From Candidatus Micrarchaeota archaeon (GTDB lineage: Archaea > Micrarchaeota > Micrarchaeia > Anstonellales > Bilamarchaeaceae), in assembly GCA_040754495.1 (NCBI GenBank), contig JBFMCO010000022.1, positions 18,233 through 82,232 on the forward strand: a DNA stretch of 64,000 nt, written 5' to 3'. How positions within the stretch are numbered: the first letter of the stretch is position 1; each line of letters starts with the position of its first letter. Shown here in pieces: positions 577-22,471 of this stretch. The notes under the pieces were generated by a model that saw only the letters and a list, made by a program, of their open reading frames with translations, made no database searches and was not told the origin of the DNA. The translations under genes and the position numbers were made by a program.

Positions 577-1545
577 TTGTTTGTCAACCCCCCGTGGTTA
601 CCATTTATCCAAAAAATCCAGCGGATTAAAAACGCGATTAGCGATAAAATATTCATGTCACAGCCCCTGCAGAAGCCCGCGCAAGAGCACCAGCGCCTCC
701 AGACCACTCCCCGCATCCGCAGGCCTCCTTTCGTGATGTGCAGGGACATCGAGCAGGTGAGGGAGGTGCTGAGGATTTACGGCGCGATGGAGATGCACCT
801 GATGATGTCCGGAATCCTGGAGAACAGGAAGGAGATCGGGAGCCTCATGTATGCTTATGACGAGACTTCGAGGCAGGCGCTCGCGCGCGCCCCGCCGATG
901 GTGGTGAGGGTCCCGCAGGGCCTTCTGGACCAGCTTGCGATAGCCGGGGGCGCGAGCGGTGCCTACGTCCCGGGGACCAATATCGTCCTCGTGTCATCGT
1001 CGCCGGCCCGTTTCCCGGACGGGACGCCGCAGAGGGTGGAGGACATAATAACCCACGAGACTCTCCACTATCTCGACTATCTCCTTCATGCCAATCGCAT
1101 GGCCTTCAGGAGCCGGGGGCGGCTTGTGAATCCGGAGCCGCCGAGATTCTTCGACGAGGGAGCGACCAACTATGCTGCCCTCCAGGTCGTCAGCGGGATG
1201 CATCTGCCCGGAAACCGGGAAGCACCTGCCAACTACGCATATCCGACGGCAGTGATGGTGGCAATCGAGATGCTCGCAGGCATCGAAAGGCTGGCTCCGG
1301 CCATGCAGAGCGGCAACTGGGAGCATGTGCAGCAGGCAATCGACCAGAAGCTCGGCCAGGGCAGCTTCGAGCGGATACTGGATTGCGGCAACGGCGCGGA
1401 AGCCATCGGGCTCATACTGGAACTGGATAACGGCCAGCCCCCCTTTATAGACAGGCAGCTTCTCGAGCGGCATCCGGTCATGAGGAGGGCGAGGCGCGGA
1501 ATCGAGGCCATGAGGCCGCCGTCCATGGCGGGCCAGGAGATATGA
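577..1545 (+). CDS. Hypothetical protein with an HExxH motif (ITHETLHYLD); putative zincin-like metallopeptidase
   Basis: 322-aa ORF. It has a lone HExxH followed by LD, the same local pattern as the C-terminal segment of the giant ORF. The start could instead be at the internal Met (MSQPLQ, about 655). Confidence 0.5.
   Translation: MFVNPPWLPFIQKIQRIKNAISDKIFMSQPLQKPAQEHQRLQTTPRIRRPPFVMCRDIEQVREVLRIYGAMEMHLMMSGILENRKEIGSLMYAYDETSRQALARAPPMVVRVPQGLLDQLAIAGGASGAYVPGTNIVLVSSSPARFPDGTPQRVEDIITHETLHYLDYLLHANRMAFRSRGRLVNPEPPRFFDEGATNYAALQVVSGMHLPGNREAPANYAYPTAVMVAIEMLAGIERLAPAMQSGNWEHVQQAIDQKLGQGSFERILDCGNGAEAIGLILELDNGQPPFIDRQLLERHPVMRRARRGIEAMRPPSMAGQEI

Positions 1546-22471: not shown

Follow-up and report, generated by a model that had tools for sequence, protein, structure and literature searches.

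Which genes travel with a giant gene in the chromosome of an episymbiotic archaeon, and do the HExxH motifs found in and around it belong to one system? The question is raised by a 64,000-nucleotide (nt) stretch, called the window here, of contig JBFMCO010000022.1 (assembly GCA_040754495.1), from the metagenome-assembled genome (MAG) of a Candidatus Micrarchaeota archaeon. Micrarchaeota belong to the DPANN, a group of small-celled episymbionts that attach to other archaea. The window holds an open reading frame (ORF) for a giant protein of 6,841 amino acids (aa), a short ORF that overlaps its start codon (ORF2) and, further 5′, ORF1, whose product bears an HExxH motif. A second HExxH motif lies towards the C-terminus of the giant, and a third in the protein of ORF 27209..28393 on the − strand, called 27k here. 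An original prediction, made from the letters of the window, took the three motifs as one recurring pattern, proposed that they mark a zincin-like maturation or processing component of the giant, and suggested that the small ORF is co-translated as its chaperone or partner. When the sequence was checked, each ORF and motif named in that prediction was found in its place.

The reading that we favour, at a probability of about 0.5, treats the locus as a copy of a cassette, known so far only from Micrarchaeota, whose product would be an effector of the polyvalent or polymorphic-toxin-like kind that contains zincin modules. It is built on synteny, homologies, motif invariance and the topology of a structural model. 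HExxH motifs are enriched in the window: its likely genes (18,470 residues) contain three, against 0.51 expected from composition, and three occurrences of the longer pattern HExxHxL[DE] were reached in 0 of 2,000 shuffles. The invariance of each motif among its own homologues, described below, carries more weight than these counts. The coding signal is strong in all ORFs, with a G+C content at third codon positions (GC3) of 0.78-0.83.

ORF2 and the giant gene form a conserved pair

1617..1946, + strand: ORF2, small partner protein, 109 aa
1946..22471, + strand: giant ORF, 20.5 kb, 6,841 aa

The two genes meet within the sequence ‘TGATG’, which contains the TGA stop of ORF2, and base 1946 is common to this stop and to the ATG of the giant. 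Comparison with locus L001, from a sister strain that is 95% identical, gave ratios of nonsynonymous to synonymous substitution rates (dN/dS) of 0.17 for ORF2, 0.29 for the N-terminus of the giant and 0.36 for ORF1. Loci of more distant relatives (L002, L003 and L004, ~36-42% identical over matched stretches) extend the comparison. An ORF2 homologue lies directly 5′ of seven of seven other giant genes (one in L001, two in L002, three in L003 and one in L004); the spacing is between −4 and +9 nt for six and 216 nt for the seventh. These homologues share 30-45% identity, and W49, K55 and W76 are invariant among them. Shine-Dalgarno-like GAGG or GGTGA motifs are found 6-12 nt 5′ of the giant ATGs, inside the 3′ ends of the ORF2 homologues. 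That ORF2 and the giant gene are a conserved, tightly coupled pair is strongly supported, and the coupling first suspected from the overlapping stop and start codons is borne out by every other giant gene compared.

The ORF2 starts are preceded, 20-48 nt upstream, by AT-rich, TATA-like boxes. Because such boxes stand 5′ of ORF2 in all loci, the operon is suggested to start at ORF2, and ORF1 sits outside this putative promoter. The 65 nt 5′ of ORF2, including the AT-rich box, are identical in the window and L001, whereas the interval between ORF1 and ORF2 differs between the two by a 150-nt indel.

A small gene that is conserved directly 5′ of a large one and translationally coupled to it is the arrangement of chaperone or adaptor genes and their substrates, and ORF2 and the giant gene have both features. 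ORF2 most likely binds the conserved N-terminal region of the giant as a chaperone or adaptor. Pfam, NCBIfam, PHROG and PDB searches, alignment-based ones included, placed ORF2 in no known family. Assignment as a WXG100-like protein was rejected, as the conserved Trp residues lie outside a W-x-G context and Pfam and PDB lent no support. The two pairs on the L002 contig encode proteins of 106 and 6,069 aa and of 108 and 5,879 aa, and the three on the L003 contig proteins of 104 and 2,051, 112 and 5,817, and 121 and 3,130 aa; the segments of these extra pairs lie at 27290-30210 in L002 and at 1-410 and 28361-29454 in L003.

On its other side, the giant gene is met by five small convergent genes (22490-25228, − strand), three of which belong to one family without known domains, the d-family:

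22490..23032, − strand: d-family paralogue 1, 180 aa, convergent with the giant gene and paralogous to 24133-24663 (E 3e-23)
23029..23577, − strand: d-family paralogue 2, 182 aa, 43% identical to a 178-aa gene at the same position in L002
24133..24663, − strand: d-family paralogue 3, 176 aa, paralogue of paralogue 1

Homologues of the d-family genes are found just 3′ of giant genes in L002, L010, L016 and L017, so that with the window the convergent arrangement occurs in five loci. This recurrent gene order indicates that ORF2, the giant gene and the convergent d-family genes constitute a conserved cassette.

A fixed N-terminus is joined to shuffled modules in the giant

1961..4045, + strand: N-terminal region, aa ~6-700
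8318..8935, + strand: hydrophobic segment(s), aa ~2125-2330
11921..13414, + strand: kinase-like module copy 1, aa 3326-3823, with the degenerate catalytic-loop motif DRFDRN
15515..16495, + strand: kinase-like module copy 2, aa ~4524-4850, partial or divergent, with DRHAGN at aa 4764
18389..19945, + strand: kinase-like module copy 3, aa 5482-6000, with a Gly-rich loop, FVK, DRHTGN and FQPIDPD
21692..22195, + strand: C-terminal domain, ~160 aa (aa 6583-6750)

An exhaustive HMMER scan of 1.84 billion representative proteins, with the last 1,200 residues of the giant as query, found 67 relatives (given P-numbers here), 20 of which have 3,000-7,300 residues. A homologous-protein search with the last 1,400 aa found none. 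No part of the giant matched Pfam, NCBIfam, PHROG or the sequences of the PDB, profile searches of the PDB with alignments A2 (the giant-type HExxH domain described below), A4 and A5 found nothing, and literature searches turned up no description of the giant family.

The ~700-aa N-terminal region occurs at the same N-terminal position in P0003, P0004, P0005, P0015 and P0016 (phmmer and blastp E 1e-42 to 1e-52), and the first ~2,100 aa of the giant make up a very long helical region. Kyte-Doolittle scans mark the hydrophobic segment or segments that follow. In many homologues two hydrophobic segments, separated by ~45 aa, lie in a comparable place about one third along the protein, and those of the giant probably insert into a membrane. 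Further downstream, a ~500-aa module with a Gly-rich loop, FVK, DRxxxN and FQPIDxD motifs is present in 52 copies among the 67 relatives and this giant, and copies 1 and 3 of the giant form an internal repeat (36% identity, E 1e-38). The module had no match in Pfam or the PDB, and Pfam, NCBIfam and PHROG scans of the small relatives of this module and of the C-terminal domain were likewise empty; we call it kinase-like on the strength of its motifs, which would be compatible with kinase activity. The C-terminal domain, for which there is no Pfam family, also occurs as about 25 stand-alone proteins of 130-235 aa (P0039-P0069, E 1e-13 to 1e-3). One relative, P0007 (3,693 aa, L018 452-11533), ends in a nuclease-like PIN domain (E 3.8e-4). 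The giant is thus modular, with a conserved N-terminus and shuffled downstream modules.

The composition of the protein is unusual. It contains no cysteine in 6,841 aa, whereas the other proteins of the window have 1.26% cysteine, a frequency at which ~86 would be expected; the homologous giants carry 0-14. By eye, small protein-kinase-like motifs (VAVK..., GDFD and FLDAG) can be made out at aa ~4007-4300 (13967-14848) and a GNAT-like motif at aa ~2813-3090 (10382-11215). Both stretches are common to other giants, and both are without a Pfam match.

Among 185,579 GTDB species genomes, a DNA pattern for the kinase motifs was found at 10 loci, nine of them in genomes titled Micrarchaeota or Micrarchaeia and one in an ‘uncultured archaeon’, while viral contigs of IMG/VR gave 0 matches. 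The giant family has so far been found only in Micrarchaeota. A viral or prophage origin of the giant was rejected, as IMG/VR gave no match and the window contains no phage genes. A further kinase-motif locus (L012) lies on a third contig of the MAG that contains L002.

Two different zincin-like modules occur in the giant family

20336..21706, + strand: giant-type HExxH domain, aa 6131-6587 (~440 aa), with HEMQH at nt 21149-21163 and an invariant Glu at nt 21257-21259
655..1545, + strand: ORF1, 296 aa, stand-alone zincin-like module, the same length as GenBank MEW6035397.1

The motif of the giant, VHEMQHLLD, spans aa 6401-6409, with HExxH beginning at aa 6402. The domain around it was found in 13 copies in 11 proteins, and HExxH is kept in 13 of 13. 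Across these copies, which are 23-47% identical, alignment A2 has an invariant H, E and H, a Gly seven residues on, E-x-T-x-x-A and a Tyr. The invariant Glu (E299 of A2, giant aa 6438) lies 31 residues after the second His, giving the pattern HExQHxxD...ExTAxARE. An AlphaFold2 (AF2) model of the domain, built from A2, has a predicted local distance difference test score (pLDDT) of 82 and a predicted template modelling score (pTM) of 0.79. In this model, a helical N-terminal part is followed by five strands, a helix bearing HExxH (251-272), a short helix and a long helix bearing the Glu (288-329). Among the top 50 matches of the model in a Foldseek search of the PDB, ~40% are gluzincins (neprilysin, anthrax lethal factor, clostridial collagenases and MATCAP), all weak, and a search of BFVD gave only weak IrrE-like matches. 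On the model and the invariant residues, the giant-type domain likely has a zincin-like metallopeptidase fold.

One carrier of the domain, P0066 (746 aa), is at the margin of known families. Its HExxH region aligns across the motif with the models of DUF6782, a putative metallopeptidase (E 7e-4, 19.4 bits), and Peptidase_M78, the IrrE/ImmA-like zincins (E 0.042, 14.1 bits), in both cases below the curated threshold (27 and 22, respectively); the domain of the giant itself and of the other 10 members matched neither model in Pfam. Searches of GTDB genomes for the giant-type domain found nothing. In P0066 the domain is fused to two forkhead-associated (FHA) domains, which bind phosphothreonine, a fusion of some note given the kinase-like modules of the giants.

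The ORF that contains ORF1 opens at a TTG at 577, and the GenBank form, MEW6035397.1, starts at the ATG at 655; the longer form is probably an over-extension. ITHETLHYLD is encoded at nt 1048-1077 (HETLH at 1054-1068). An invariant DEG motif stands 29 residues downstream of HExxH, and its E (nt 1156-1158) is the candidate third ligand. HExxH is kept in three of three copies of this type. ORF1 had no match in Pfam, NCBIfam, PHROG or the PDB, and in a database of 5.8 billion proteins its relatives comprise a single other cluster, 95% identical and from the sister strain. Its connection to the giants is internal to one of them: searched against the relatives with phmmer, ORF1 aa 69-262 proved homologous to P0007 aa 1220-1415 (E 2.7e-15), with VPGTNxVLV, THETLHY and DEGxT conserved. 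Since this alignment covers nearly the whole of ORF1, the protein is tied to the giant family, and the preferred interpretation is that of a module, embedded in a giant in the case of P0007, that here stands on its own. A search of metagenomes with alignment A6, which joins ORF1 and the P0007 module, found nothing.

The third HExxH protein lies outside the cassette

27209..28393, − strand: 27k, 394 aa, third HExxH protein, with HEVAH at nt 27605-27619

HEVAHMLE occupies aa 259-266 of 27k. In the alignment of its family (A3, four sequences), HExxH is kept in four of four, and H259, E260, H263, E281, A284 and Y285 are invariant, E281 lying 17 residues downstream of the motif; this invariance suggests that the motif is functional in the 27k family too. 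Like ORF1, 27k has an exact counterpart among the GenBank entries of the Micrarchaeota MAG, and it found no family in Pfam, NCBIfam or PHROG and no PDB match. The surroundings of the gene point away from the giant. An orthologue in L007 (9488-10834) has an equivalent position, flanked by genes for a GT2 glycosyltransferase, a 99-aa protein and a formyltransferase, with PolD and the cysteinyl-tRNA synthetase (CysRS) gene nearby. L007 has no giant within 10 kb; the metagenome that yielded it also contains giant P0004, on another contig. 27k and its L007 orthologue are 36% identical, and the flanking genes 54-91%. Membership of 27k in the cassette was rejected because its slot among housekeeping genes is kept with no giant nearby. 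As judged from gene order and sequence comparison, 27k is a zincin-like core-genome protein that evolves fast and whose closeness to the giant is incidental, and the proposal that it shares the giant's system does not hold.

The idea that the three motifs represent one component fared no better. The program blastp found nothing among the three HExxH segments, and profile comparisons with hhalign, all at a probability below 4%, were confined to the motif or to the motif and a strand. A2 aligned with ORF1 at P 0.012 over 44 columns (one strand and the motif), with A6 at P 0.02 (again one strand and the motif), with 27k at P 0.076 and with A3 at P 0.049 over 16 columns. The three segments appear to be three different families that share at most superfamily-level features. 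All three families have the conserved HExxH of gluzincins and an invariant downstream Glu that would serve as the third metal ligand; for the giant type this Glu is on the next helix of the model, and for ORF1 and 27k it was seen at the level of the motif. For annotation, the lesson is that the bare recurrence of HExxH can mix one unrelated protein of housekeeping context with two that are truly linked.

Known systems with related features

Zincin-like metallopeptidases (MPTases) are the commonest hub domain of polyvalent proteins (Iyer et al., 2017, PMC5512222). In these proteins one to five copies of the MPTase are scattered between other domains; HExxH is carried by one helix and the Glu by the following one, and roles in autoprocessing or as an effector have been proposed for it (PMC5512222). 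Polyvalent proteins and the giant are alike as giant polypeptides of many modules, putatively enzymatic in the giant, in which an HExxH helix and a Glu helix (in the giant, as modelled) follow a small beta-sheet; the giant-type module likewise occurs in one or two copies, interspersed among others and in a fraction of members, and a distant resemblance to anthrax lethal factor is common to both. Among the defining traits of polyvalent proteins is the combination of unrelated enzymatic domains in a single chain; the giants show module shuffling, and motifs suggest that their modules are enzymes. Unlike polyvalent proteins, whose genes belong to phages, prophages, plasmids or conjugative elements and which are delivered together with the DNA of these, the giant is chromosomal in an archaeon and has no match in viral contigs. 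It also lacks the ‘large polyvalent protein associated’ domains of Pfam, and its HExxH domain is ~440 aa long with a long N-terminal helical part; our comparisons demonstrated no sequence link between this domain and the polyvalent MPTase clades.

The bacterial polymorphic toxins, such as the LXG or Rhs toxins with their small helical partners and their immunity genes further 3′, resemble the cassette in its overall plan, with a small partner gene 5′, a conserved N-terminus, variable enzymatic modules, arrays of small paralogous genes 3′ and several loci per genome. They are defined by a known N-terminal trafficking domain, a C-terminal toxin and a co-directional immunity gene, a combination that the cassette does not have; the likeness may be one of functional analogy. 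The giant is without LXG, Rhs, PAAR or another known trafficking domain, its modules are not only C-terminal, the 3′ genes are on the opposite strand and the archaeal host has no known cognate secretion system.

Within the DPANN, the SPEARE proteins of Nanohaloarchaeota are membrane-anchored giants that combine a Sec signal peptide with an ectodomain of Ig-like domains and beta-propellers and with a VirB4/TraG ATPase (PMC10266531). Like the giant, they are proteins of an episymbiont that exceed 5,000 aa and lie in variable genome regions, and they are thought to mediate interaction with the host (PMC10266531). Unlike them, the giant has no SPEARE domains by Pfam; its N-terminal third is alpha-helical, and its modules are of kinase-like and zincin-like types. 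The giant system therefore lacks at least one defining feature of each of the polyvalent, polymorphic-toxin and SPEARE groups. What is new in it is a multi-module, effector-like giant with zincin modules and a small partner, drawn from undescribed domain families.

A modular effector is the favoured explanation

In the reading that we favour, each cassette would consist of an AT-rich, promoter-like box, a ~110-aa partner gene, a translationally coupled giant gene and convergent d-family genes of ~180 aa. The giant would be a largely alpha-helical protein with a positionally fixed N-terminus and a mid-protein hydrophobic segment, after which come shuffled enzyme-like modules. The HExxH motifs of the giant and of ORF1 would be the active-site helices of two different undescribed gluzincin-type modules from this shuffled repertoire. 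Such modules would bind zinc and, by analogy with polyvalent proteins and polymorphic toxins, would most likely be metalloproteases. They might cut the giant into active pieces, either in cis or, in the case of ORF1, in trans; alternatively, they might attack proteins of the host cell on which the episymbiont depends. A role in maturation or processing is plausible on the same analogy.

Several observations weigh against this explanation. No significant match to a curated zincin family was found for any of the three HExxH proteins in Pfam, NCBIfam, PHROG or the PDB, the best Foldseek match of the giant-type domain model in the PDB has an E of 0.13, short of significance, and the single-sequence AF2 model of ORF1 is unusable (pLDDT 40). 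The giant-type domain is present in six of the 21 giants, in two of them duplicated. The giant showed neither a signal peptide nor any known domain for secretion or toxicity, and its N-terminus is not signal-peptide-like. The d-family genes run opposite to the giant gene, an orientation atypical of immunity genes. Finally, no ORF1 homologue lies beside the six giant genes of L002-L004, where the only other HExxH gene is a 208-aa ORF with a lone QIHEHFH.

This last result bears most directly on the proposal that ORF1 is a dedicated zincin maturase of the giant, with ORF2 as a co-translated chaperone and one transcript spanning 577-22471. ORF1 does adjoin the pair and is kept in the sister strain, the coupling of ORF2 and the giant is real, the processing of multidomain giants by zincins is an accepted theme (PMC5512222), and the fusion of an ORF1-type module in P0007 is a Rosetta-stone hint of functional linkage. 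The fusion links ORF1 to the giant family but does not argue for a maturase. The upstream HExxH gene, which had been expected to belong with the giant, does so by homology to the P0007 module but not by a position kept in more distant loci, as it is missing from L002-L004; the absence of upstream genes from orthologous loci had been named beforehand as grounds for abandoning the idea, and of the two upstream genes ORF2 passes this comparison in seven of seven cases. The near absence of ORF1 relatives among 5.8 billion proteins and the indel that separates it from the invariant 65 nt 5′ of ORF2 also count against a dedicated function. Since only six of 21 giants have the HExxH domain, it is one of the shuffled modules rather than a general maturation device. 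We regard the dedicated ORF1 maturase as unlikely. An even more improbable explanation is that the HExxH motifs are structural or non-proteolytic, as in metal-dependent hydrolases that act on something other than protein or in metal sites with a regulatory function, and that the giant is an intracellular or cell-envelope scaffold. The want of a significant zincin match by sequence or Foldseek, the very long helical region of the first ~2,100 aa and hydrophobic segments suggestive of membrane anchoring would all suit a scaffold. Against this, the sheet, the HExxH helix and the Glu on the next helix seen in the AF2 model are the defining arrangement of zincins (PMC5512222), gluzincins dominate the weak Foldseek matches, and the motifs are invariant across copies as little as 23-47% identical. 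In these respects the original view of the motifs as zincin-like was sound: they are conserved signatures, each with an invariant downstream Glu, and the modelled topology of the giant domain agrees.

A polymorphic-toxin-like conflict system overlaps with the effector reading rather than excluding it. The N-terminus and ORF2 would then provide export trafficking and an adaptor, the C-terminal modules (kinase-like, zincin-like and, in relatives, PIN) would be toxins against the host or competitors, and the d-family would confer immunity. In favour of such a system, a conserved N-terminus is followed by shuffled modules, among them the PIN domain of P0007, there are several giant genes per genome, a paralogous array of small genes stands immediately 3′ in five loci, the giants are poor in cysteine, and the cassette adjoins a tRNA gene where synteny is broken. 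It sits less well with the lack of any recognised secretion or toxin domain, with d-family genes that are convergent instead of co-directional, with modules placed mid-protein as well as C-terminally and with the fact that no archaeal export route is known for such proteins. In this specific form we consider the explanation possible but doubtful.

An extended version of the effector reading can be offered tentatively. The cassette may be an undescribed effector system, present in several copies per genome, in which a ~110-aa chaperone or adaptor serves a cysteine-free giant of 3,000-7,300 aa. The giant would be inserted into a membrane by a hydrophobic hairpin and would deliver combinatorial kinase-like, zincin-like and nuclease modules that act on the host archaeon, with zincins cutting the polyprotein and the d-family protecting the producer. 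If this is so, archaea would have their own equivalent of polyvalent proteins or MARTX-type toxins, composed throughout of unknown domain families. The new domain families number at least five: two zincin-like modules, the kinase-like module, the ORF2 partner and the d-family. Copies of the giant family claim ~20 kb each of a small genome, and there are two or three giant genes at each locus examined. The organisation recalls that of multi-effector weapons known from phages, plasmids and toxin systems. How DPANN archaea manipulate their hosts is largely unknown, and if the zincin modules process or deliver the others, the family would give a testable handle on the interaction between DPANN and host.

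Flanks of the cassette and other features of the window

375..540, + strand: tRNA gene that marks the left border of the cassette, interrupted by two inserts, one of 42 nt in the D region and one of 58 nt following the anticodon loop

Within the window, the cassette is flanked on the left by this tRNA gene and on the right by a block of housekeeping genes, whose order is kept in another Micrarchaeota genome with synteny broken at ~25.3-25.5 kb. No virion or conjugation genes were found among the window proteins. Given its position beside a tRNA gene, where synteny breaks, the cassette may be mobile despite its housekeeping neighbours. The window also encodes the large subunit of archaeal PolD with an intein, CysRS, the PP-loop (ATP pyrophosphatase) subunit of GMP synthase and other housekeeping proteins.

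The tRNA gene was matched over its full length by the Rfam tRNA model (40.2 bits, E 1.9e-7), in permissive mode only, and ARAGORN gave only the 3′ part, as tRNA-Gly; read by eye, the anticodon is possibly CUU. Between the window and the sister strain L001 the exon parts do not differ, and the inserts are divergent. At the left edge of the window, an ORF at 1-314 (+ strand) that runs off the end looks, by eye, like the C-terminal portion of a homing endonuclease of the LAGLIDADG type (GIFNTDGS...). In PolD, the large subunit (DP2, 31778-36658, − strand) is interrupted at ~32522-34054 by an intein with a LAGLIDADG domain. The DP2 orthologue in L007 is 1,120 aa long and has no intein, and in the window the insert coincides with a dip in G+C content to 0.507 at 32-34 kb.

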